Shown here: positions 8,395 to 62,882 of the stretch, piece after piece
Numbering within the stretch: position 1 is the stretch's first letter
Layout of the letters: each line of letters begins with the position of its first letter
Assembly: GCA_963807025.1 (NCBI GenBank)
Contig: CAWDZT010000010.1
Coordinates: forward strand, 25,301 to 89,300
Direction: 5' to 3'
DNA from: an uncultured Candidatus Saccharibacteria bacterium
Lineage (GTDB): Bacteria; Patescibacteriota; Saccharimonadia; Saccharimonadales; UBA4665
Length of the DNA stretch: 64,000 nucleotides
Position numbers and translations under genes: made by a program
Notes under the pieces: generated by a model
Told to the model about the DNA's origin: nothing
The model's database searches: none
Seen by the model: the letters and a program-made list of their open reading frames with translations, nothing else

Positions 8395-8426
8395 CCAGCA
8401 CCTTTATCAACGGATTTTACAACGTT
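8395..8426. repeat. solo end of the CCAGCACCTT palindromic element family
   Basis: ccagcacctttatcaacggattttacaacgtt starts directly after the ldt stop codon and overlaps the last codons of frr. It shares CCAGCACCTTT...ACAACGT with the other copies. Confidence 0.5.
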
Positions 8427-8982
8427 AGGATATCGGCTTCTTTGGCCTTGGCGGCGGCTTCGGCGTCGCGCGCGGGCCTTGAACCCATGGCGTCTTCCAC
8501 CTGCCCGACAGCCGTTTGGCGTCGTCCTCGCCTATATCTTTGTCTTTCTTGAGCTTGTTGATGGCGTCCATGGCTTCATGCCGGACGGCCCTTAGCTTAA
8601 TCATGCATTCTTCCTGCTTGCCGCTGATATTCTTGGCCAGCTCGCGGCGGCGTTCTTCCGTCAGGGCCGGAATCTGTACGCGCACCACCTGGCCGTCGTC
8701 ACTGGGGTTCAGACCCAGGCTCTGGTCGTCGCGAATGGCGTTGGATATGGCCTCCAGGTTGTTCGGATCGAAAGGCGTGATCTGGATCAGCTGGGCATCA
8801 GGCGCGGTTATGTTCGCGACCTGCTTGAGCGGCATGGGCGTACCATAAGCCTCGACGGTGACACCGTCGAGCATCCCGGCATTCGCCCTGCCGGTCCTGA
8901 GCGTCTTAAGCCCATCCTTAAAATGCTCAACCGTTTGGTTGAATTTCCCTTCCGCGTCTTTGACTATCTGATTCGGGTCCAT
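8417..8982 (-). CDS. frr: ribosome recycling factor (frameshift near 8500; the ORF track ends at 8425 in the wrong frame)
   Basis: The N-terminal 150 aa are typical RRF. A tail ...AKAKEADILTL* is read after a 1-nt shift. Confidence 0.85.
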
Positions 8983-9594: not shown

Positions 9595-9652
9595 CCCAGC
9601 ACCTTTCTTGTCCTTATTCACAACGTTACTCGTACTATTTGAAGGGTGCTGG
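9595..9652. repeat. palindromic element copy (CCCAGCACCTTT ... GAAGGGTGCTGG) in the rpsB-tsf spacer
   Basis: Inverted 12-nt arms with a 34-nt loop. One arm ends 2 nt before the tsf ATG. The first 32 nt are 28/32 identical to the solo copy at 18327-18358. Confidence 0.6.
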
Positions 9653-10397
9653 TCGTCTTTCTTGTCGTCGTCTTGCTTGTCGTCGTTCGGCGGCGCTTGG
9701 TCTTAGCCTTTGCCTTGCCCGTCAGGATGGCGTCCTTCACGTAGCCGACCATGAGTTCGATGGTCTTCACGGCATCATCGTTCGACGGTATGGGGTAAGT
9801 AACCAAGGTGGGATCGGCGTTGGTGTCGACCAAAGCTACGATGGGAACCTTCAGCTTGGCGGCCTCGCGCAGGGCGTTGGCATCGTGGACGACATCCACG
9901 ATAAATACCGCGCCCGGCTTGGCGTTCAGTTCCTTCACGCCGCCGTACATGTAGTTCATGTGGTCGATCTCTTCCTGGAAGCGCTGAACCTCGAGCTTGT
10001 TGTACTTGTTGGCGAGTTCGCCGCCGGCCATGCGGTTTTCCAGATCCTGCAGGTGCTTGACCCGGCCGCCCATGGTGTTCCAGTTGGTGAGCATGCCGCC
10101 CAGCCAGCGCTCGGTCACGTATGGCATGCCGGTTTCCTGAGCCGCCTTTTTAACAATGTCCTGGGCCTGGCGCTTGGTGCCAACCAGCAGGATCTGCTTG
10201 CCGTCTGCGGCCGCTCCCGTAAGGAAGTCCAGGGCCTCGCCCAGCTTCTCGACCGTCTTGGTCAGATCGATTATGTGCGTGCCGCCGCGCTTGCTGTGGA
10301 TGTACGGCGCCATCTTGGGGTGCCAGCGCTCGGTCTTATGTCCGAAGTGCGCTCCGGCCTGCAATAATTCTTTTATATCTACCTGTACGGCAGCCAT
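9618..10397 (-). CDS. rpsB: 30S ribosomal protein S2
   Basis: MAAVQVDIKELLQAGAHFGHKTERWHPKM is a typical S2 start, preceded by GGAAGGAG. The basic C-terminal tail frame is uncertain. Confidence 0.9.
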   Translation of the reverse strand: MAAVQVDIKELLQAGAHFGHKTERWHPKMAPYIHSKRGGTHIIDLTKTVEKLGEALDFLTGAAADGKQILLVGTKRQAQDIVKKAAQETGMPYVTERWLGGMLTNWNTMGGRVKHLQDLENRMAGGELANKYNKLEVQRFQEEIDHMNYMYGGVKELNAKPGAVFIVDVVHDANALREAAKLKVPIVALVDTNADPTLVTYPIPSNDDAVKTIELMVGYVKDAILTGKAKAKTKRRRTTTSKTTTRKTTSTLQIVRVTL

Positions 10398-18326: not shown

Positions 18327-18358
18327 GACGTTGTGATAAAGGTCAAGAAAGGTGCTGG
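18327..18358. repeat. solo end of the CCAGCACCTT element family
   Basis: The reverse complement, ccagcacctttcttgacctttatcacaacgtc, is 28/32 identical to 9596-9627. It lies 1 nt after the stop codon of the 18360..19109 gene. Confidence 0.55.
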
Positions 18359-25718: not shown

Positions 25719-25783
25719 ACGTTCATAGGAGCATATCAGAAAGCCCCGCCCCTGTAAAGGATGCCGACCATTAACCGATTATC

Positions 25784-25993
25784 GCGGATATGACATTCCC
25801 ATCCTCTGTTACAACATGTCAACATGTAGCTCGACGTTTTTGACCCCCAGAGGACATGTATGCCAACCTTCCCCTTAAACAAAACCACTAACACACCGCA
25901 AGGTACGCCTACTATTCACCTTACTCCTAACCCTAAAAACGTCGAGCTACATGTTGACATAGAACCGCCCCTGTTAGCGAATGTCATATCCGC
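25784..25993. repeat. MITE-like element, copy 1 (GCGGATATGACAT termini; inverted relative to copies 2 and 3)
   Basis: Outer inverted repeat gcggatatgacattc and inner inverted repeat atgtcaacatgtagctcgacgttttt. The interior matches the flanks of copy 3, with about 205 nt missing. Confidence 0.7.
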
Positions 25994-25998
25994 AACGA

Positions 25999-31279: not shown

Positions 31280-34228
31280 CTAGCTGCAGCCGGTGGTGGA
31301 GCCGCAGGCGGTACAGACGTAGCAGCTGCCGGAGCGCTGGGTCTGGTTGCCGCAGTTGTAGCAGATGGGCGCGGTGTCGTCCTTCTTGGCGGCTTTAGGA
31401 GCCGCCTGGGCGGCCACAGGGGCGGTCTGGACGGGTTTCGGTGCCGAAGCTGCAACCAGGGCCGGTTCGGGCTTCGGCGCCCAGTAACGGCCGGTTGCGG
31501 GTTTGCTGCATGGCCGCGGTTTCTTCGGCGGCGCCGTCGTCTCAGCACGGTCTCTCTTCGCCCAGCAGGCTGGTCTGTTCGTCGGGCATGTCGTCGATGG
31601 AAGCCAGGCCCAGCTCCAGGCGGTCGTCGAAGCTCAGGTAGCTCATCGCCAAGCGGCGGAAGATGTAGTCTACCAGGCTGGAGGCCGTGCGGATCTCCGG
31701 GTCGTCGGTGATGCCGGCGGGCGCGAACGACATGTTGGTCAGGCCGTGGACGTAGCTCTTCAGCGGTACGCCGTACTGCAGGCCGTAGCTGACCGATACG
31801 GCCAGGGCGTCCATGACGCCGGCCAGGGTGGAGCCCTGCTTGGCGATCTTCATGAAGACCTCGCCGGGGGTGCCGTCTTCGAACTCGCCTACGGTGACGT
31901 AGCCCTTGGAACCGGCCACGCGGAAGCTGAAGGTCTTGGCGTTGCGGTGCTTGGGCATCTCGCGGCGCTGGGCGCCCTTGGGTATGATCGGCGGTCCGGC
32001 GGTGACGGCCAGCGGCGGGCGCAGCGGGAGCGGCAGGCGCGGTGGCGGCCGCGGCAGCGGCCACGGGCACCTCGACCTGCGCGGTAGCGGGAACGGCCTT
32101 GTGGACGCCCGGATACGGGACGGACTGCTTTTTCGGCGTCGCCGCCCTTCTTAGCCATGCACAGCGGCTGGGCGACCTTGCAGTTGTCGCGGTAGATGGC
32201 GATGGCCTTCAGGCCCATCTGCCAGGCGTCTATGTGCAGTTGTTCGACGTCTTCGACGGAAACGTCCTCGGGCATGTTGACCGTCTTGGATATGGCGCCG
32301 CTCAGGAAAGGCTGTACGGCGGACATCATCTTGACGTGGCCCAGGTAGTGGATGGCGTTGTCGCCCATAGAGCAGGCGAAGACCGGTTCGTGCTCCTTCT
32401 TGAGGCGCGGCGCGCCCAGGATGGTCTTTTCTTCGTCGATGTAAGCCACGATGTCGTCGATCTCCGGCTGTTTGTAGCCCAGGTTCTTCAGGGCGCGCGG
32501 TACCGTCTGGTTGACGATGTTCATGGTGCCGCCGCCGACCAGCTTCTTGTGCTTGACCAAGCCCAGGTCGGGCTCGATGCCGGTGGTGTCGCAGTCCATC
32601 ATCAGGCCGATGGTGCCGGTGGGGGCCAGCACGCTGGCCTGGCTGTTGCGTACGCCGTAAAGCTCGCCCAGTTCGACGGCCTCGTCCCAGGCGCCGGCGG
32701 CCGCGCTGAGCAGGTCTTCCGGTACCAGCGAGGCGTCGATCTTGGAAACTTCGGCGCGGTGCATGCTTAAGCACGTTCAGCATGCCTTCGCTGTCTTTGG
32801 CAAAGCCGGCGAACGGACCGATGCGGTTGGCTATCTTGGCGCTCACGGCGTAGCTGTGGCCGGTAAGCAGCGCCGTTATGGTGGCGGCTATGGCGCGGCC
32901 TTCGTCGGAGTCGTACGGCAGGCCCAGGGCCATCAGCAGGGCGCCCAGGTTGGCGTAGCCTATACCCAGCTCGCGGTAGGCCTTGGCGTTCTTGGTGATG
33001 GGTTCCGTCGGGTACGAGCTGTAGCCTACCAGGATCTCCTGCGAGGTGAAGATCAGTTCCACGGTGTGCATGAAGGCCTTGATGTCGAAGGTGTCGTCGT
33101 CCTTCAGGAACTTGAGCAGGTTGATGCTGGCCAGGTTACAGGCCGAGTTGTCCAGGTGCATGTACTCGCTACAGGGGTTGGAGCCGTTGATGCGGCCGGC
33201 TACCGGGCAGGTGTGCCACCGGTTGATGGTGGAATCGTACTGCATGCCGGGGTCGGCGCACTCCCAGGCGGCCTCGGCGAACTGGCGGAACAGCTCGCGG
33301 GCCTTGACCTTCTTGACCGATTTGCCGGAGGTGACGGCGCGCAGGTCCCAATCGCTGTCGTTCTGGACCGCTTCCATGAATTCGTCGGTGACGCGCACAG
33401 AGATGTTGGCGTTCTGGTACTGGACGCTGAAGCTGTCCTTGCCGTCCAGGGTCATGTCCCAGCCCAGACGTTCCAGGTCGCGCGCCTTGCGCTCTTCTAT
33501 AGCCTTGCTCCAGATGAATTCCTCGACGTCGGGGTGGTCGGAGTTCAGGATGACCATCTTGGCGGCCCGGCGGGTCTTGCCGCCGCTCTTGATGGCGCCG
33601 CGCCGAAGCGTCGGCGCCGCGCATGAAGCTAAGCGGACCGCTGGCCGTGCCGGCGCTCTTGCCGAGCGCTTCCACGCTGGAGCGTATCGGGCTGATATTG
33701 ATCCCTGAACCGCTGCCGCCCTTGAAGATCATGCCCTCTTCGACGTACCAGTTAAGGATCGCGGGCATGGTGTCGTCTATGCCCAATATGAAACAGGCGC
33801 TGGCCTGCTGGGCGCGGTCGGCGGCGCCGATGTTGAACCACACCGGGCTGTTGAAGGCGGCGCGCTGGGTGGCCAGCACGTACTTGAGCTCTTCGCGGAA
33901 ATCATCGGCCTCGGCCTCGTCCGCGAAATAGCCTTCCTGCAGACCCTGGCGGACGATGGTGTCGGCCACGCGGTCCACCAGATGCCTTAAGCGACTTCTC
34001 GCGGCCCCGGGTGCCCGGCGTGCCGGTAAAGTACTTCTGGGCCACGATGTTGATGGCATTGAGCGACCAGCTGTCCGGAAACTCGACGCCTTTCTGCTCG
34101 AACACGGCCTTGCCGGTCATAGGATTCTTGATGATCGAATCGCGCTTGACCCACTTAAGCTGGTCGTAAGCCTTGGATTTTTTGGGGGTAAAAAGTCGCT
34201 CCACCCCCAGACTGGTAGTTTGTGACAT
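31280..34228 (-). CDS. nrdJ: adenosylcobalamin-dependent (class II) ribonucleotide reductase (at least 5 frame pieces)
   Basis: Long class II RNR similarity across ORFs 33902..34243, 33169..34059, 32151..33557, 31889..32764 and 31542..31958. C-terminal tail ICYNCGNQTQRSGSCYVCTACGSTTGCS. Confidence 0.85.
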
Positions 34229-34775: not shown

Positions 34776-34842
34776 CCCAGCACCTTTGTTGGCGGTTTTT
34801 ACAACTGGCACTGTTGGTAAAAACTGGCAATAAAGGTGCTGG
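34776..34842. repeat. palindromic element copy (CCCAGCACCTTT ... AAAGGTGCTGG) in the nrdR 5' leader
   Basis: 11-12-nt inverted arms with a 44-nt loop containing tttttacaac. It lies between the NrdR boxes and the nrdR SD. Confidence 0.6.
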
Positions 34843-34861
34843 ACTTACCATTAAATGTGCT

Positions 34862-36670: not shown

Positions 36671-36864
36671 GCGGATATGACATTCCCTAACAGGGGTGAT
36701 TTATGTCAATATGTAGCTCGGCGTTTTTAAGGTCCAAGGTAAGGTATGCGTCATTGCCGTGTGTCTTCGCTACGATGCTGATATAGGTGCAGGGCTGTTG
36801 AAGGTCAAATATGCCGAGCTACATATTGACATGTTGTAACAGAGGGCAGATATGTCATATCCGC
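36671..36864. repeat. MITE-like element, copy 2, in the ftsA-ftsZ spacer
   Basis: The same outer (gcggatatgacat) and inner (atgtcaa(c/t)atgtagctcg(a/g)cgttttt) inverted repeats as copies 1 and 3. It starts 12 nt downstream of the ftsA stop. Confidence 0.7.
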
Positions 36865-36876
36865 GGGCAAAGCCGT

Positions 36877-48056: not shown

Positions 48057-48422
48057 TCAACAGCAGGATATATGAGCGTGTTGTCTGCGCTCGGTGCCGG
48101 TCACGCGCTCGACGGCCTCGCAGTAAGGCACCAGCCACCTCAGGCTGAACCAATAGATAGCCGCCAGCACCGACAGGCAGACGAAGAATATCAGCAGACT
48201 TCTGAGCTGGTGGCCGCCTTCGTAGTAGCTGTCTACGGCCTGGCGGCAGGCCGGATCCGTATCGTACCGGCCTATGCAGGCAGCCGGCGGCTTCTCGACG
48301 GCGGGGCGAGGCTTCACGGCTATATACAGATTCCAGGCCGCCAGCAGGAAGACGGCCACGGCCAGGAGCCTGAGTAATACCAGCTTCCCCACGCCCGGTA
48401 TACGGCGCCGGCTGAGCCGCAA
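48057..48422 (-). CDS. hypothetical membrane protein
   Basis: 121-aa ORF with two hydrophobic segments. It overlaps other-frame ORFs, so the call is weak. Confidence 0.3.
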   Translation of the reverse strand: MRLSRRRIPGVGKLVLLRLLAVAVFLLAAWNLYIAVKPRPAVEKPPAACIGRYDTDPACRQAVDSYYEGGHQLRSLLIFFVCLSVLAAIYWFSLRWLVPYCEAVERVTGTERRQHAHISCC

Positions 48423-48549
48423 TCAGTTCCTTACGGTCGTGAGCGACAACCACCGGAACTCGTACAGTCCCAGGGTCAATAGATTAAATGCGACGATTTT
48501 CACCAGCGATCTTTGCTTCACGCCTACCAGTTTAGCCTATACTGAAAGC

Positions 48550-50491
48550 ATGCACTACTATTCGGTACTGGTGAGGAGCAGCCGCTACCACGGCAAGGAG
48601 GCGCTGACATACGCCTCGGAGAAGCGTCTGGGGCGCGGCCGGATCGTGCGCGTCCAGCTCCAGCAACACACTGTCCTGGGCATCGTAGCGGATACCGCCG
48701 GCAAGCCCCGCTTCAAGACCAAGGCCATCACGGAAGCGTTGGATCTGCCGCCTCTGCCGGCGCATCTGCTCAAGCTAGCGGAATGGCTGTCCGCCTATTA
48801 CCCGGCGCCCCTGGGACTGATTGCCCAGCAGTTACTGCCGGCGAACTTTCCCGCCAAACTGCCCGGGACCAAACCGCCCGGCGCCGGCCCGGCCAAGCCG
48901 GACCTGGGCGATCTGCCGTCGCCCACCAAGGAGCAGAAGGCCGCCCTCAAAGCCATGGAGGGACGCAATACCTACCTTCTGCACGGTGTGACCGGCAGCG
49001 GCAAGACCAGGCTTTATATAGAATTGGCCGCCAAAGCCGTGAGCGGCGGCAGATCCGCCATCATCCTGACCCCCGAGATCAGCCTGACCTCACAGCTGGC
49101 CGCTCGTTTCCGAGAAGTCTTCGGCGACAGGGTGGTCGTACTGCACTCCAAACAGACCCCGGCGGAGCGCCGAAACGCCTGGCTGGACATCTTAAGATCA
49201 GACGGGCCGTCGGTCGTCATTGGGCCGAGGTCGGCCCTGTTCAGTCCGGTCAAGGACCCCGGCCTCATAGTGCTCGATGAAGCCCACGAAGCCGCTTACA
49301 AGCAGGAACAGGCCCCTCAGTATCAGGCTGGCCGCGTAGCCGCCTACCTAGCAGGCGCTACCCGGGCGACGCTAGTGCTGGGTTCTGCCACACCTTCGGT
49401 CAGCGATTATTATCTGGCTGAGCAGAAAGGCCGACCGGTAATCAGGCTCACCGAACTGGCCCGCGAACACAGCCATGCCGCCACCAGAGTAAGCGTGGTG
49501 GACCGCAAGGACCATTCCCTGTTCAGCCGCTCGCCTTACCTGAGCCTGGAGCTAGTAAAGGCCGTGGAAGCCGCGCTGGCCAAGGGTGAGCAGAGCCTAC
49601 TGTACCTGAACCGGCGCGGCACGGCCCGCCTGGTGCTGTGCGAGAACTGCGGCTGGCAGGCGGCCTGTCCGCACTGCGACGTGCCGCTCACCTACCACGG
49701 CGACCGCCACGAACTACGCTGCCACAGCTGTAATTACCACGCCAAGGCGCCTGCCAGCTGTCCTGAATGCGGCCATCCGGACATAATGTTCAAGACCGCC
49801 GGCACCAAGGCCATCGCCGACGAGGTCAAGCGTCTTTGGCCGCAGGCCCGCATAGGCCGTTTTGACACGGATAACCCGCAGCGCCGAACGCTTCGAACAG
49901 CAGTACGAAGCCGTTGCCAAAGGCGACGTGGACGTGCTGGTAGGCACCCAGATGCTGGCCAAGGGCCTGGACCTGCCGCGCCTTAGCACCCTGGGCGTCC
50001 TGCTGGCCGATACCAGCCTGTACATGCCCGACTTCTCGGCCGAGGAACGCACCTTCCAGCTCATAAGCCAAGTGCTGGGCCGAATCGGCCGCGGACATGT
50101 CGCCGGGCACGCCGTAATCCAGACCTACCACCCGGACCACCCCGTCATCAAGGCCGCCGTAAAAGGCAATTATGAGGGCTTTTATAAGACCGAGCTGGCC
50201 TCGCGCAAGCAATTCGTATTCCCGCCGTTCTGCTACCTGCTAAAACTGACCGTGCGCCGCGCCAGCATCGATGCCGCCCGTACGGCCGCCGAAACTCTTA
50301 AATCAGATATAGAGGAGTCCGGTGCACACGTGCGCATAGAAGGCCCCGCACCGTCGTTCTACGAGCGTCTTCAGAACAAATACCAATGGCAACTGGTGGT
50401 CAAATCCCGCCAGCGCCCCGAATTACTCAAGATAATCGAGGACCTGCCCTCCGGCTGGTCCTACGACATCGACCCCCTAGACCTGCTTTAA
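48550..50491 (+). CDS. priA: primosomal protein N' (PriA helicase; frameshift near 49880)
   Basis: Walker A GVTGSGKT, VLDEAHE, a Cys4 zinc-binding region (CENCGWQAACPHCD...CHSCNY...CPECG), and C-terminal helicase motifs in ORF 49862..50491. Confidence 0.85.
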
Positions 50492-51963: not shown

Positions 51964-52377
51964 GCAGATATGACATTCCCTAACAGGGGTGATTCTATGT
52001 CAACATGTAGCTCGACGTTTTTAGGGTTAGGAGTAAGGTATATGTTAAAGCGTACCTTGCGGCTTGTTAGCGGTTTTGTTTAAGGGGGAGGTTAGCAGAG
52101 TCCGAGTGGTTTTAGCGCTGGCCGGGTGGTTGCGCGGCAGGGTCTTAGCGCCAAGTAGCCCTGACTGTAAGTGTAAGTAGGACCATGCAGGAATCTAGTA
52201 GGATCCTCCTTTCATCATCCATTAAACATACCCTTAGCATACCTATGGTTAGGCATACGGTATTACATGGGTACCCGGCTTACGCCCATGGGGCTATGCA
52301 TACATAACGCCTGGAGGTCAAAAACGTCGAGCTACATGTTGACATGTTGTAACAGAGGGCAGGAATGTCATATCTGC
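51964..52377. repeat. MITE-like element, copy 3 (longest, 414 bp), between the convergent fmt and DUF5663-like genes
   Basis: gcagatatgacattccctaacaggggtgattctatgtcaacatgtagctcgacgttttt ... aaaaacgtcgagctacatgttgacatgttgtaacagagggcaggaatgtcatatctgc. No ORF of 60 aa or more inside. Confidence 0.7.
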
Positions 52378-52385
52378 AACGATCA

Positions 52386-53095: not shown

Positions 53096-53102
<7 letters not shown>
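52386..53102 (-). CDS. DUF5663-like protein with long Pro/Ala/Gln-rich C-terminal tail
   Basis: The N-terminal 100 aa (LLEEVGLASLPASEKNSFLKHIYETLEMRVG) resemble a domain I recall from Saccharibacteria-type genomes. The tail is low-complexity. Confidence 0.5.
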
Positions 53103-54937
<1,835 letters not shown>

Positions 54938-54952
54938 CGACACTCCTTTCCG

Positions 54953-54980
54953 CCCAGCACCTTTGTCCAAAGGTGCTGGG
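54953..54980. repeat. minimal hairpin CCCAGCACCTTT-gtcc-AAAGGTGCTGGG in the rpsA-infB spacer
   Basis: Perfect 12-bp stem with a 4-nt loop and no U-run. It lies 8 nt after the rpsA stop and 16 nt before the infB ATG. Confidence 0.7.
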
Positions 54981-58642: not shown

Positions 58643-58647
58643 CAAAA

Positions 58648-58762
58648 TTTGGCACCGTGCTATCTTCCCAGGGGTGAACCCCAAGTATTGTAACCGCTTC
58701 GAGACTTAACTGCTGTGTTCGGCATGGGAACAGGTGTTGCCCTCGGGCTATGGGCACCAACC
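58648..58762 (-). rRNA. rrf: 5S ribosomal RNA
   Basis: Minus-sense sequence contains CCCATGCCGAACACAGCAGTTAAG and closing helix I (UUGGUGCC / GGUGCCAA). Confidence 0.85.
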
Positions 58763-58796
58763 CGGCCACCTTTCCGTAGAAAGGTGCTGGGCCGGC
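58762..58796. repeat. hairpin with the family core (CACCTTTC-cgta-GAAAGGTGCTGGG) in the 23S-5S spacer
   Basis: ccggccacctttccgtagaaaggtgctgggccgg. The stem flanks are GCCGG/CCGGC. Confidence 0.5.
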
Positions 58797-59168
58797 ACCC
58801 AAGCGGGCGGCGGCACGGTTCTTAAGAAGCTAATGAACGTACTGGTGCTACGATGCTTCGTAAGCACCGACGACCGGTCAATTGCGCGTAAAAAGTCAAT
58901 GCCTCTATTAGTACGCTTCGGCTACACATGTCGCCATGCTTCTACCTTGCGCCTATCAACCTGATGGTCTTTCAGGGAGGTCATAGGGAAATCTTATCTT
59001 AAGGGAGGCTTCGCGCTTAATATGCTTTCAGCGCTTATCCCGTCCGCACGATAGCTACTGGACAATGCTCCTGGTGGAACAATCCATACACCAGAGGTGC
59101 GTTCGACCCGGTCCTCTCGTACTAGGGCCAACTCCTCTCAAATTTCCTTGCGTCCACAGCGGGTATAA

Positions 59169-59239
<71 letters not shown>

Positions 59240-59253
59240 AAGGTGCTCCCCCT

Positions 59254-59288
<35 letters not shown>

Positions 59289-59573
59289 AGCGCCGTCTAT
59301 GTGAACTATTGGGCGCTATAAGCCTGTTATCCCCGGCGTAACTTTTATCCGAAAGCGCTGCCGATACCACTCTCATGTACATGAAATGTACGGACAGCGG
59401 AAAACTTACTCCTACTTTCGTACCTGCTCGGCTTGTAGGCCTCACAGTCAAGCTGGCTTATGCGTATACACTATCACTACGATTTCCATCCGTAGTTAGC
59501 CAACCTTTGAACGCCTCCGATACTCTTTAGGAGGCAACCGCCCCAGTTAAACTACCCACCAGACACGGTCCCA

Positions 59574-59768
59574 GAACCAGAAACATCCACGAATCCGTTT
59601 AGGCGATATCAGATACATTCGCGCCGAGACCTAATTTACGGTCTCTTGCGAACGTACCTGAATCGCTTTACTAGCGACTCGCGCATATTTCTGAGACACC
59701 GTAATTTAGGTGTCGGGGAAATATGCGACGATGTCGCTAGAAGCGGTTCATGGGCAGTTTGTGGTCCT
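59574..59768 (-). other. rRNA expansion of about 170 extra nt at the position of 23S helix 79
   Basis: Only about 23 nt separate GACACNGUC and GUUAGAACA in E. coli, against about 195 nt here. It contains the hairpins GCATATTTC..GACACC-taaattac-GGTGTC..GAAATATGC and GAGACC-gtaaatta-GGTCTC. It has no CCAGCACCTT ends. Confidence 0.6.
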
Positions 59769-60212
59769 GGTAAGAACAAGATCATGACAAGGGTGGTATT
59801 TCACTGATGGCTCCACCGCCGACTAGCGCGGCGGCTTCAAAGCCTCCCACCTATGCTACACATGTCATAACCCGGCTCAATGCCAAGCTGTAGTAAAGCT
59901 GCACGGGGTCTTTTCGTCCTGCTGCGGACAGACGGCATCTTTACCGCCAATGCACTTTCACCGAGCTCTTCGTCGAGACAGTACCCATATCATTGCGCCA
60001 TTCGTGCAGGTCAGAACTTACCTGACAAGGAATTTCGCTACCTTAGGACGGTTATAGTTACCGCCGCCGTTCACCGGGGCTTCAGTTTGCTGCTAAACAC
60101 AGCTCACCTTAACCTTCCGGCACCGGGCAGGCGTCAGCCCGTATACATCCACTTTCGTGTTAGCACAGACCTATGTTTTTGGTAAACAGTTGCATGGGTT
60201 CCTTAGCTGCGG

Positions 60213-60272
60213 CCCAGCACCTTGCTAACCACGAATTACATCGTTGTAAATCATGACCAGAAAGGTGCTGGG
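60213..60272. repeat. 60-nt palindromic element copy within 23S (helix 63 region)
   Basis: cccagcaccttgctaaccacgaattacatcgttgtaaatcatgaccagaaaggtgctggg lies between conserved AAGTTACGG.. and ..CAACTGTTTACC blocks. Confidence 0.65.
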
Positions 60273-60760
60273 CAGGCCTTATTCCGAAGTTACGGCCGCT
60301 GTTTTGCCGAGTTCCTTGACGAAGAATCACTCGTACACCTTGGTCTTCTCGACCTGAGCACCTGTGTCGGTTTGCGGTACGGATAGCATAGTCCACGCGC
60401 CGGAATGCTTTTCTAGTCAGCACTTTTACTGGAATCCGACCATAAGGTCGTCTCATTCGCAGGCGTTCCTCCTGCTTAGACGGGTATAACCGTGAACCCG
60501 CTCCAACTAATATGCCGCGCACATCCGGCAAGACTACGCTAGTACGGGAATATTAACCCGTTGTCCATCGCCTACGCTACGCGCCTCGGCTTAGGACCGA
60601 CTAACCCTGGGACGATTATCGTGGCCCAGGAAACCTTGCTCTTTCGGTGGGCAGGATTCTCACCTGCCTTATCGTTACTCGTTCCAGCATTCTCACTTCC
60701 TAACGCTCCACGGAATCTCGCGATTTCGCTTCGGCGCGATAGGAACGCTCCTCTACCGCC

Positions 60761-60829
60761 CCCAGCACCTTACTTAGCATTTTTTACATACATACGCGAT
60801 GTTGTAAACAATGCTAAGTAAGGTGCTGG
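60761..60829. repeat. 69-nt palindromic element copy within 23S (helix 45 tip)
   Basis: cccagcaccttacttagcattttttacatacatacgcgatgttgtaaacaatgctaagtaaggtgctgg replaces the H45 hairpin between GAAGNU..GG and GGTAGAGGAGCGTTC. Confidence 0.65.
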
Positions 60830-61444
60830 AGACCCATATCTTCGGTACTACGCTTGAGCCCCGTTACATTTTCCGCGCGGGATCTCTTGACGAGTGAGCT
60901 GTTACGCACTCTTTAAATGAATGGCTGCTTCTAAGCCAACATCCTCGTTGTCGAAGAAATCCCACCTCGTTTCCCACTTAGCGTAAATTTAGGGACCTTA
61001 GATGATGGTCTGGGCTGTTTCCCTTTTGAGCGACGAGCTTAGCCCCGCCGTTCTAACTGCCGTAGTTCCACTGACCGTATTCGTAGTTTGTCAAGGGTGG
61101 GTATCCGTAAGGACCCCATTCCGAAACAGAGCTCTACCCCAGTCAGCTACCGTACGACGCTAGCCCTAAAGCTATTTCGAGGAGAACCAGCTATCTCCAG
61201 GTTCGATTGGCATTTCACCTCTAACCACAGGTCATCCGGGCATTTTGAAACATGCTGCGGTTCGGTCCTCCACGCAGTTTTACCTGCGCTTCAACCTGCC
61301 CATGGTTAGGTCACCTGGTTTCGGGTCTAATCCATACAACTAATTCGCCCTATTCAGGCTCGCTTTCACTATGCCTACGACAAATGTCTTAAGCTTGCTG
61401 CATGAATTAACTCGCTGGATCGTTCTACAAAAAGCACGCCGTCA

Positions 61445-61865
61445 CCCAGCACCTTTACCATCAACATTTACAACGGTCCGGTTCAATCGAATGAACGATT
61501 AAACTGGTCTATGGCCTTCGGGAAACCAAGCTGTTTCTTAAGCTTAGTTCTCGCTTGGCCGTAATGTTTTAGCTGCTTCTCTCTTGCTAACGCTAATCTT
61601 CGTGAGGTATATGCCTCATAATAAACGATTTTCCAGGGGCGCAAACGTCTCGTTGAAACGTTTTCGCCGGCATTATGCTGACCTAATCTTCTCTTTAGAT
61701 TGTTGGTCTGACCATAGTAGATATGTCGCTTATTCCGAAGACTCTGCAGAATATAGACGTAAAGCACAGCTCCACTGTATATTCCACCCATCTCCGTTCA
61801 AAGAAATTTAACATTAGTTTAAGAAGCAACCAGCCGTTGTCAAATTTGATGACAAAGGTGCTGGG
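61445..61865 (-). mobile_element. 421-bp element with about 33-bp imperfect terminal inverted repeats, carrying a GIY-YIG ORF, inserted at 23S helix 25
   Basis: Left end cccagcacctttaccatcaacatttacaacggt. Right end (reverse complement) cccagcacctttgtcatcaaatttgacaacggc. The ends are 27/33 identical. The flanks correspond to E. coli GGGAG|..H25..|UGACUGCGUACC. Confidence 0.65.
61483..61791 (-). CDS. GIY-YIG nuclease family protein (102 aa), same strand as the rRNA
   Basis: VLYVYILQS...HIYYGQTNNLKRRLGQHN...RPWKIVYYEAY...ALAREKQLK matches GIY..YIG, the conserved Arg, and the catalytic Glu context. Confidence 0.8.
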   Translation of the reverse strand: MGGIYSGAVLYVYILQSLRNKRHIYYGQTNNLKRRLGQHNAGENVSTRRLRPWKIVYYEAYTSRRLALAREKQLKHYGQARTKLKKQLGFPKAIDQFNRSFD

Positions 61866-62290
61866 CTCCGACTCCTTGTACGCACACAATTTCAGGATCT
61901 ATTTCACTCCCCTTCCGGGGTTCTTTTAACCTTTCCCTCACGGTACTTGTACACTATCGATCGTAAGATATATTTAGCCTTGGGAGGTGGACCTCCCGGA
62001 TTCAGTCAGGGTTTCACGTGTCCCGACTTACTCGACTCTGCAAGTGATAAAGTTCGTAAAACTTGGTATACCAGGCTTTCACTGTCTGTGGCCCCACTTT
62101 CCAGAGGGTTCTACTCGCATTACGTATTTATGACTTTATGCCGATTGATGGTAGCATCGGCGCCTTTTGCAACCCTTCATAAAAAGGGTAACAAAAGGTT
62201 ACTTGCAGGTCACAACCCCTTAATAACATTCGTCTACCAACTTATCCATCCGGCAAATTGCCAGATGAAAGTCATTAAGGTTTGGGCTGA

Positions 62291-62321
<31 letters not shown>

Positions 62322-62853
62322 ATTGGTTATTTTCTCTTCCTCAGGGTACTAAGATGTTTCAGTTCCCCTGCTTACCACTACCCGACCCTATATATTCAGG
62401 CCAGTGTGACCAGGTATGACCCTGGCCGGGTTTCCCCATTCGGACACCTCCGGATCAAAGCATATTTGGCTGCTCCCCGGAGCTTTTCGCAGCTCATCGC
62501 GTCCTTCGTCGGTATCTTACGTCAAGGCATCCGTTATGTGCGCTTGAGTAACTTTTTACGATTTGACTTGGCTACCGTTCGGTGAAGATCGGCACCAAGC
62601 CTAAAGTGCAATTGACCGGTCATCGGTGATTACCTAAGTAACTCCGACTCCGTCGTCCATTGCTTCTCTTTGAATCACCCTGTTAAAGGGGTGATCCGTC
62701 GACCTAATTGTTAAATTGCTAAACTCGGAAACTTGCTGATACGCGGTGGTGCCTAAAAGCACCCTCCCTATCATTCAAGCTTGAGTTTACGTTCAACTTT
62801 TCTGCCTAATTGCCCGGCTGACTAGCCTGGACCTAAACTCAAGCGTTCATATA

Positions 62854-62882
62854 ATTATACGCTTCTTAACAGGGGCGGTCAA
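62854..62882 (-). promoter_or_regulatory. near-consensus sigma70 promoter of the 23S-5S operon (TTGACC-17 nt-TATAAT)
   Basis: Reverse complement of 62877-62882 is TTGACC, spacer is 17 nt, and reverse complement of 62854-62859 is TATAAT. It lies about 290 nt upstream of the 23S 5' end. Confidence 0.6.

Follow-up and report, generated by a model that had tools for sequence, protein, structure and literature searches.

A small GIY-YIG nuclease gene between inverted repeats in helix 25 of a Saccharibacteria 23S rRNA gene, and a candidate palindromic mobile family around it

We analyzed a 64,000-nucleotide stretch of DNA (the window) from an uncultured Candidatus Saccharibacteria bacterium (GenBank assembly GCA_963807025.1, contig CAWDZT010000010.1, positions 25,301 to 89,300 of the forward strand), in which an insert with a GIY-YIG nuclease gene occupies helix 25 (H25) of the 23S rRNA gene. 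The results showed that this insert belongs to a family of palindromic elements, whose members lie at different sites in related genomes; those in rRNA genes occupy the ends of variable surface helices (H25, H45 and approximately H63), where they take the place of the native tip. Such a family had been proposed in the initial annotation, which was made from the letters alone, and the proposal was strengthened by an in-frame insertion in infB, by empty sites in two relatives (L157 and L158), by site occupancy that varies among carriers, and by five further lineages. We propose that the H25 insert is the protein-coding master of a small palindromic mobile family and that its nuclease drives the copying, an arrangement that would resemble in function the repetitive extragenic palindromes (REPs) and their associated tyrosine transposases (RAYTs). 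We put the probability of this reading at about one half.

An ORF-bearing insert at the tip of helix 25

A search against Rfam identified a complete bacterial large-subunit rRNA at 58887-62558 on the minus strand (RF02541, 2535 bits, model positions 1-2925), followed by the 5S rRNA at 58647-58761. The 23S gene is 3672 nt long, compared with 2904 nt for its E. coli counterpart. Aligning it with rrlH of E. coli (MAFFT) showed that 421 nt of minus-strand sequence take the place of E. coli positions 541-552, the H25 tip, between the flanks ..GGAGTCGGAGCC and GGTGACGGCGTGC.., and that further extra sequence of approximately 68 nt and 60 nt is present at E. coli 1163-1180 (H45) and 1708-1740 (approximately H63), respectively. 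The Rfam placement and this alignment agree with the initial annotation, which had described a 421-bp block in the 23S gene at the H25 tip. An inverted-repeat search found terminal arms of 32 nt that are complementary at 27 of 32 positions (84%) and enclose 357 nt; the earlier description of 33-nt repeats with 27 of 33 identities was essentially right. The positions of the element and its parts are as follows.

58887..62558, minus strand: 23S rRNA gene (Rfam RF02541), which hosts three family members
61445..61865, minus strand: ORF-bearing element that replaces the H25 tip (MAFFT; empty site in L157 and L158; no intron match)
61834..61865, minus strand: 5' arm (in the rRNA sense) of the terminal inverted repeat, which holds the inner motif TTGACAAC; position weight matrix (PWM) score 42.1
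61445..61476, minus strand: 3' arm of the terminal inverted repeat, re-found by the PWM; pairs with the 5' arm in the minimum free energy fold (z = -11)
61483..61791, minus strand (the rRNA strand): GIY-YIG open reading frame (ORF), 102 aa as listed, PF01541; probable start at GTG 61767, giving 94 aa
61816..61843, minus strand: promoter-like TTGACA-16-TAAACT, matched by consensus scan alone at 10 of 12 positions; its -35 hexamer is the inner conserved motif of the arm

Neither group I nor group II intron models matched the insert (61380-61930) at the gathering threshold or at E<=10, and the same Rfam search found a group I intron in the 23S gene of a relative (L005). A group I or group II intron with a homing endonuclease, which the initial annotation had already considered the less likely reading, was rejected, as no ribozyme core was detected by RF00028 or the group II models at E<=10. 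As in intervening sequences (IVSs), the site is the H25 tip, a sister hairpin lies at H45, and the complementary terminal arms give an extended stem on the host helix. The H25 insert is best described as a hairpin-bounded element of the IVS type, and not as an intron. Taken as a whole, the earlier observation on this insert was confirmed in all particulars.

A hairpin family with the same termini

The motif CCAGCACCTT occurs 16 times in the window as an exact match, compared with 0.15 expected, and 35 times with at most one mismatch, compared with 4 expected. The unit of the family is an arm of approximately 30 nt, CCAGCACCTTT-N11-TT(T/G)ACAAC (consensus CCAGCACCTTTnTnAnCAnnnTTnACAAC), and two inverted arms make a hairpin of 58-68 nt. 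The outer 10-11 bp of the arms are invariant and paired, whereas positions 12-24 differ among copies and are paired at 55-85%, with several pair types per position; the folds of the hairpins contain perfect stems of 20-30 bp. A PWM built from 14 arms re-found 13 of these same 14 at scores of at least 34.7. The rest of the window scored below 14 throughout, and 10 shuffles gave no match. The copies other than the H25 element are listed here.

60761..60830, minus strand: ORF-less hairpin that occupies the tip of H45 (E. coli 1163-1180), with a folding energy of -50.4 kcal/mol (z = -11.4)
60212..60273, minus strand: ORF-less hairpin at E. coli 1708-1740 (approximately H63), in place of a 14-nt native tip
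58766..58795, minus strand: short degenerate copy of the hairpin, terminal motif included, between the 23S and 5S genes (motif search); L004 and L005 have equivalents in the spacer
54953..54980, minus strand: 28-nt hairpin made of the termini alone, between an S1-domain gene and infB, directly 5' of the infB Shine-Dalgarno sequence
54659..54718, minus strand: 60-nt in-frame hairpin in infB
34776..34843, minus strand: hairpin in the nrdR leader (PWM, fold)
9595..9653, minus strand: partly decayed hairpin between rpsB and tsf, with the rpsB stop codon inside it
8395..8423, plus strand: solo half-site (one arm) that fills the gap between two convergent genes and adjoins the stop codon of the plus-strand gene; PWM score 43.4
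18330..18358, minus strand: solo half-site that adjoins the stop codon of a membrane-protein gene; PWM score 38.9

The arms of the ORF-less copies and those of the ORF-bearing copy have similar PWM scores and share their termini, as is the case for miniature inverted-repeat transposable elements (MITEs) and their parents. The motif counts (35 against 4) and the PWM bear out the initial annotation's claim that miniature copies with the same termini lie elsewhere in the window. We also considered that the motif might be a genome-wide promoter (GTTGTAA-N11-AAAGGTG 5' of genes); this was dropped as the main explanation because some copies lie within coding sequence or rRNA helices, or in the gap separating convergent genes.

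The copy in infB adds 20 codons in frame (PSTFAGSNNNVVTGDGKGTG) to the linker ahead of the G domain of translation initiation factor IF-2. This insertion is absent from all 10 aligned IF-2 relatives, one of which is 90% identical, and IF-2 is 613 aa long here, compared with 589-602 aa in most of the relatives listed. The comparison indicates that one family member entered infB in frame in this lineage. One deposited protein (P0121) is identical to the IF-2 of the window and many others are 75-90% identical; the named sources of the latter are mostly Candidatus Saccharimonadales or Saccharimonadia. The genome is that of a Saccharibacterium (TM7; Saccharimonadia).

Filled and empty sites in relatives

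The closest homologues of the GIY-YIG protein (P0001-P0014) are 63-85% identical and come from metagenome contigs. All four loci that were fetched (L002-L005) have the ORF within the 23S gene, in the orientation of the rRNA and between E. coli 540 and 553. When one genome per GTDB species was scanned, H25 copies were found in two unclassified metagenome-assembled genomes (MAGs; L006 and L007) and a GIY-YIG insert at H25 in L011, which is labelled Actinomycetota UBA9087 and whose protein is 54% identical. One further H25 insert is that of L161 (P0017, 52% identity); apart from it, the more distant homologues (<53% identity) lie outside the 23S gene. The insert at H25 is therefore present in nine independent assemblies (the window, L002-L007, L011 and L161), which rules out a chimeric assembly, a possibility that the initial annotation had raised. 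L135 has a 454-nt insert at the same point of H25. It was the only real H25 element from a metagenome scan with the half-site TTGTNA-N11-AAAGGTGCTGG (16 specified bases), whose 120 single matches are close to chance by our own estimate.

L157 (a 950-kb contig) and L158 are syntenic with the window, and a 365-nt segment of their 23S genes is 95.9% and 93.1% identical to it. Both have a compact native H25, GAGCC-GGCTTGTCC-GGTGAC, with a 9-nt loop and no GIY-YIG ORF there; the sequence of the empty H25 is GAGCCGGCTTGTCCGGTGAC. The exact family motif does not occur in 21 kb of L157 and L158. L002-L006 are more distant (79-89% 23S identity) yet carry the element, so that the distribution is patchy relative to 23S similarity. 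Every carrier has H25 filled, whereas H45 is occupied in four and the site near H63 only in the window; E. coli 272-289 is filled only in L004 and L002, and 1498-1557 only in L005, and there are copies in leaders and spacers. Comparison of filled with empty sites shows that the native tips were replaced (9 nt at H25, 14 nt at approximately H63). As expected of a mobile element, copies are present or absent against intact empty sites, both in infB and at H25 and H63 in comparison with L157 and L158. In L004, a complete 68-nt family hairpin (L004:5787-5854) is nested towards the 5' end of the GIY-YIG element at H25, and the family therefore inserts into itself.

The nuclease

The ORF matched the Pfam GIY-YIG family PF01541 with E=3.1e-17 (63.1 bits, cut-off 22.6), which bears out the initial reading of a 102-aa ORF with GIY-YIG hallmarks on the rRNA strand. 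The true product is probably 94 aa long, from GTG 61767, because homologues start 8 codons downstream of the listed start. It is the only GIY-YIG gene in the window, and one protein-coding member was found at each locus examined (one contig per genome). Forty-two homologues share invariant Y3, Y5, Y17, G19, R27, H31 and E51; these include the tyrosines of the GIY and YIG motifs and the catalytic Arg, His and Glu of the superfamily. Among the H25 copies, pN (nonsynonymous differences per site) was 0.09-0.25 and pS (synonymous) 0.8-0.9, with synonymous sites saturated, which shows that the ORF is maintained by purifying selection. The N-terminus of the L007 copy looks damaged. In each of the nine rRNA-borne loci whose strand was read, the ORF points the same way as the rRNA.

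An AlphaFold2 model of the protein has a pLDDT of 89.2. Foldseek with this model returned SLX1, At-HIGLE or BH0048 at all of ranks 1-12, with probabilities of 0.99-1.00, and UvrC at a non-significant E=2.6. At-HIGLE is a plant resolvase of the SLX1 lineage. By sequence (phmmer against the PDB), the nearest solved structures are likewise UPF0213 BH0048 and SLX1, and the fold is thus nearest to SLX1/UPF0213, not to UvrC or I-TevI. The NCBIfam model of group I intron endonucleases, TIGR01453, gave E=0.078, far under its cut-off. Neither Pfam nor the structural model showed a DNA-binding domain in the 94-102-aa protein, which consists of the catalytic domain alone; I-TevI-type enzymes, in contrast, join GIY-YIG to a DNA-binding domain and have a conserved target, where the target here is a variable helix tip. 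Taken together, the model and these matches indicate that the protein is a bare minimal prokaryotic Slx1-like domain of the SLX1/UPF0213 branch, predicted to be a structure-selective nuclease. Such a domain, without the C-terminal Asn, was described by Dunin-Horkawicz et al. (PMC1564403). Enzymes of the SLX1 lineage are reported to cleave branched and stem-loop DNA.

Other lineages with their own termini

Five further lineages have a small GIY-YIG ORF between inverted repeats together with ORF-less mini hairpins, and the termini are specific to each lineage.

L161, 23S H25: termini CCGAGCACCTTC (motif CGAGCACCTT); at least three minis, among them one in the 23S leader, one close to E. coli 230-270 and a variant form close to 1854-1932
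L011, 23S H25: termini CCGAGCACTCAACTG (motif GAGCACTCAA); minis in the 16S gene near E. coli 72-97 (V1) and in place of 454-472 (V3), in the 23S gene at approximately H45, and inside a large insertion at 1931
L010 (Patescibacteria), in the region that replaces 16S E. coli 1409-1491 (helix 44): termini TCCCCTCTTTTT; one nested mini
L021 (another Saccharibacterium), purely intergenic between a holB-like gene and an unknown gene: termini ACCCCGCCCTTTCT (motif CCCCGCCCTTTC); a single mini, which separates murA from mreB
L008 (unclassified MAG), purely intergenic: termini CCGCACTTTT; at least three minis

The complete units of L008 and L021 are compact, at approximately 270-290 bp, with no more than a few bases between the arm and the start of the ORF. 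When the motifs of the six lineages were counted in each locus, the matrix was essentially diagonal: each motif occurs in 3-16 copies in its own lineage, with two single off-diagonal matches and a shuffle expectation of at most 0.02 for these loci.

Bacteroidota homologues are situated between tRNA genes, and the inverted repeats near three of them (L012, L015 and L025) proved to be terminators or duplicated tRNA sequence and not element architecture. Small GIY-YIG homologues of Bacteroidota and unclassified MAGs lie no more than a few hundred bases from tRNA genes (L012, L015, L024 and L034), and in Sediminibacterium goheungense (L015) the gene lies between tandem tRNA copies, one apparently with insertions. 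An ORF that by eye resembles the S23p four-helix-bundle family (L008:5981-6376) lies approximately 100 nt 3' of an L008 mini hairpin, in a non-rRNA context.

Comparison with known systems

Intervening sequences of 23S rRNA are found at H25 and H45 in Salmonella, Campylobacter, Leptospira and Coxiella. Like the H25 element, they use these two sites, are not introns, have a long terminal stem, may contain a single small ORF in the sense of the rRNA and are patchily distributed. The IVS of Coxiella, for example, is 428 nt long (421 nt for the H25 element), lies at H45 and carries an S23p ORF (PMC4990558). The H25 element differs in that its ORF encodes a GIY-YIG nuclease in place of the four-helix-bundle S23p, and in that its termini are common to many hairpins outside rRNA, one of them in a coding region.

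The rRNA genes of the candidate phyla radiation (CPR) are rich in insertions; about half are introns, and the origin of the remainder is unexplained. GIY-YIG ORFs in non-intron CPR rRNA insertions have been published: Tsurumaki et al. 2024 (PMC11270868), who cite an earlier study for their presence there, treat them as sparse genes of a homing-endonuclease family "outside homing". The same paper reports that H25 and H45 (its sites 23IS2 and 23IS4) have short ORF-less insertions, seen as IVS-like, and counts 64 of 66 Saccharibacteria rRNA insertions as short and without an intron or homing-endonuclease gene. Those insertions share with the window the CPR host, the GIY-YIG ORFs and the lack of any match to an intron model; the text that was consulted contains no report of inverted-repeat termini, matching minis, extragenic or in-frame copies, or lineage-specific termini. 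The initial annotation, which knew of no description of a family of this kind, was thus half right. The ORFs in CPR rRNA insertions had been described, and the statement stands for their link to dispersed hairpins: no description of such a link, with matching lineage-specific termini, was found in open-access papers and preprints.

The architecture of REP/RAYT systems, namely dispersed short palindromes, one protein gene between inverted copies of the repeat, and repeats that co-vary with the protein lineage, is found both in the window and in the six-lineage motif matrix. The enzymes differ: the present one is GIY-YIG (SLX1-like), whereas RAYT is an HUH/Y1 transposase like those of IS200/IS605, and the resemblance is therefore functional only and not one of family membership. 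We know of no strand-transfer chemistry for the GIY-YIG fold. A further difference is that copies here lie also inside rRNA and protein-coding genes, not just between genes. The minis resemble two other kinds of small ORF-less palindrome, Rickettsia palindromic elements (RPEs), which enter protein genes in frame and also RNA genes, and MITEs, for example the Correia elements of Neisseria, whose hairpins are RNase III substrates in transcripts. RPEs have no dedicated encoded protein; the families were compared by description. MITEs derive from the transposases of insertion sequences (ISs) and make target-site duplications; the window family showed no such duplication, and Pfam recognized no transposase domain in the H25-element protein. 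SLX1, At-HIGLE and UPF0213 (BH0048), which are its best sequence and fold matches, share the minimal catalytic domain with it. Eukaryotic SLX1 has in addition a RING domain and needs SLX4, whereas the H25-element protein is a bare domain inside a palindromic element. By analogy, the system appears to work most like REP/RAYT and Rickettsia palindromic elements. Judged by the features that define these kinds, it is neither a group I intron with a homing endonuclease, nor REP/RAYT (the enzyme differs), nor an IS-derived MITE (no duplication and no transposase).

A proposed mechanism and its alternatives

If the H25 insert is the master copy, its nuclease may act on the hairpins or cruciforms that the arms form in DNA, or on short palindromic targets. 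Cleavage would be followed by repair-mediated copying of master and mini elements, with joining by host repair, and the nuclease-hairpin pair would be the functional analogue of RAYT mobilizing REPs. Long perfect stems may make the rRNA inserts tolerable, either because they extend the helix or because RNase III cuts them out, as happens with classical IVSs, and the ORF could be expressed by read-through from pre-rRNA, from the promoter-like site that uses the inner arm motif as its -35, or from both. The preference for helix tips could be explained by targeting as well as by survivorship, because rRNA helix tips are short DNA palindromes and also the sole places that tolerate insertions. The initial claim of a self-mobilizing element was supported in part. 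The palindromic family withstood all three refuting conditions set in that annotation, each run or approximated here (an intron match across the insert, absence of the terminal motif elsewhere, and a chimeric assembly); mobilization of the hairpins by the GIY-YIG protein is suggested by their co-occurrence and co-variation.

Several observations weigh against this proposal. GIY-YIG enzymes cut DNA and, to our knowledge, do not transfer strands, so that the "paste" step must be assumed. No target-site duplication was seen in the comparisons of filled with empty sites at H25 and approximately H63, and the 23S and ORF distances give no decision between gain and loss at H25. L157 has a 94-nt hairpin at H45 (L157:1215-1308, CCCCAGAACTT...) with termini GCCCCAGAACTTATTT that resemble the H45 terminus of the window, CCCCAGCACCTTACTT; this diverged hairpin may be a decayed relic, which would favor loss in the L157 lineage. 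The mini copies differ greatly in their central 11-13 nt, and most of them are therefore old and not the product of a recent burst. Their co-occurrence with the GIY-YIG copy could also mean no more than that they are deletion derivatives of a passenger-carrying hairpin, itself moved by host recombination. Shine-Dalgarno signals 5' of the GIY-YIG ORFs are weak or absent. Finally, two Patescibacteria homologues (L163 and L164) have no inverted repeats and follow the pyruvate kinase gene in a conserved gene order. Members of the protein family thus also exist outside such elements, and the association with inverted repeats is frequent, not universal.

A rather unlikely account that still carries some weight is that these are ordinary RNase III-type IVSs or expansion stems at H25, H45 and H63, spread by gene conversion or recombination. 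The GIY-YIG ORF would then be a passenger, selfish or neutral, with no part in the spread, like S23p in the IVSs of Coxiella and Leptospira. In favor of this account, IVSs canonically lie at H25 and H45, the 428-nt Coxiella example carries an ORF (PMC4990558), and the short CPR insertions at these sites have already been read as IVSs (PMC11270868). The perfect 20-30-bp stems are plausible RNase III substrates, and the copies at the 23S leader, trailer and spacer are where processing stems usually lie. What this account leaves unexplained is that the same arms occur outside rRNA, in frame in infB and as unpaired solo half-sites, that L008 and L021 have GIY-YIG elements with inverted repeats and matching minis in purely intergenic DNA, and that the termini co-vary with the protein lineage in six lineages. 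The strong purifying selection on the ORF across saturated synonymous divergence is also unlike a decaying passenger.

Two other accounts assign the protein a different role. A free-standing homing endonuclease could cut the empty H25 allele, with double-strand-break repair copying the insert and the minis arising as unrelated by-products. GIY-YIG is a classical homing-endonuclease fold, H25 is filled in three diverged lineages (the clade of the window, L161 and L011), and the distribution is patchy relative to 23S similarity. We judge this very unlikely, given a protein of only 82-102 aa of the SLX1 branch with no DNA-binding or NUMOD domain and the TIGR01453 result, a target that is a variable helix tip and not a conserved sequence, related elements in 16S H44 and intergenic DNA, and minis whose lineage-specific termini it does not explain; the published survey also places CPR GIY-YIG ORFs outside homing (PMC11270868). 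The least probable account is a host-beneficial RNA system, in which the hairpins are cis-acting processing or stability signals and the GIY-YIG protein a dedicated RNA-level factor. It would fit the hairpins at rRNA ends and spacers and those directly 5' of Shine-Dalgarno sequences or after stop codons in ribosomal and translation operons (rpsB-tsf, S1-infB, nrdR, frr), as well as the pairing that is kept with several pair types at variable positions. However, we know of no GIY-YIG RNase, close relatives manage without the whole system, site occupancy is erratic, and the in-frame infB insertion and the solo half-sites are left unexplained.

The mobile-family reading, if extended beyond the window, would tentatively define a new prokaryotic mobile class, in which autonomous units of approximately 270-420 bp, made of two arms of approximately 15-32 nt and an SLX1-like nuclease of 82-94 aa, move themselves and ORF-less hairpins, with a preference for short palindromes such as the DNA of rRNA helix tips. 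We hold this wider claim with less than even confidence. If true, it would identify a source of CPR rRNA insertions, of "IVSs" and of in-frame peptide insertions in proteins, and one mobile family would explain the origin of many short rRNA insertions and IVSs. It would also give a concrete role to the widespread minimal bacterial SLX1/UPF0213 nucleases, which have no assigned function, and would add GIY-YIG to the few enzyme classes that drive palindromic repeat families; the element may be the smallest autonomous one so far described. Such a family would bear on 16S and 23S phylogeny, on primer design for Saccharibacteria and on rRNA fragmentation in these organisms.

Other features of the window and related loci

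Two further expansions of the 23S gene lack the family termini: 143 nt after E. coli 278 (62132-62274) and 176 nt after E. coli 2212 (59582-59757), the latter with its own 19-nt inverted repeat at 59682-59727. A strong sigma-70-like promoter match, TTGACC-17-TATAAT (62854-62882, minus strand), lies approximately 300 nt 5' of the 23S start. Rfam found no 16S gene in the window, and the 23S-5S operon has none ahead of it there. Relatives also have large 23S insertions that the window lacks, namely 319 nt and 781 nt near E. coli 2593-2657 in L157 (L157:2691-3855), the Rfam-confirmed group I intron of L005 (L005:2524-2839), and approximately 760 nt at E. coli 1931 in L011 (L011:6639-7400).

The window also encodes class I LysRS, ProRS, FtsZ, FtsA and PriA besides IF-2. 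A stretch of approximately 70 residues of infB (53096-54970) reads out of frame with respect to all relatives, and the C-terminus differs; priA (48274-49986), nrdJ (32151-33557) and frr (8425-8982) are among the genes with partial matches to their family models. These may be assembly indel errors or genuine pseudogenization.

A scan of viral contigs for the palindrome gave 13 copies of one prophage hairpin without the inner motif, which we judged probably coincidental. These are 13 IMG/VR prophage contigs of approximately 37% GC (L165-L177), each with the 35-nt palindrome CCAGCACCTTTCGATATTGATAGGAAAGGTGCTGG once between identical flanks, and its 11-nt terminus is common with the family. A second, unrelated MITE-like palindromic family has three ORF-less copies in the window (25783-25995, 36671-36866 and 51968-52378). 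Its inner inverted repeat, ATGTCAAYATGTAGCTCGRCGTTTTT, gave 6 arm matches compared with 0.07 expected and is nested in an outer inverted repeat, GCGGATATGACATTCCC...GAATGTCATATCCGC, with 130-349 bp between the inner arms.

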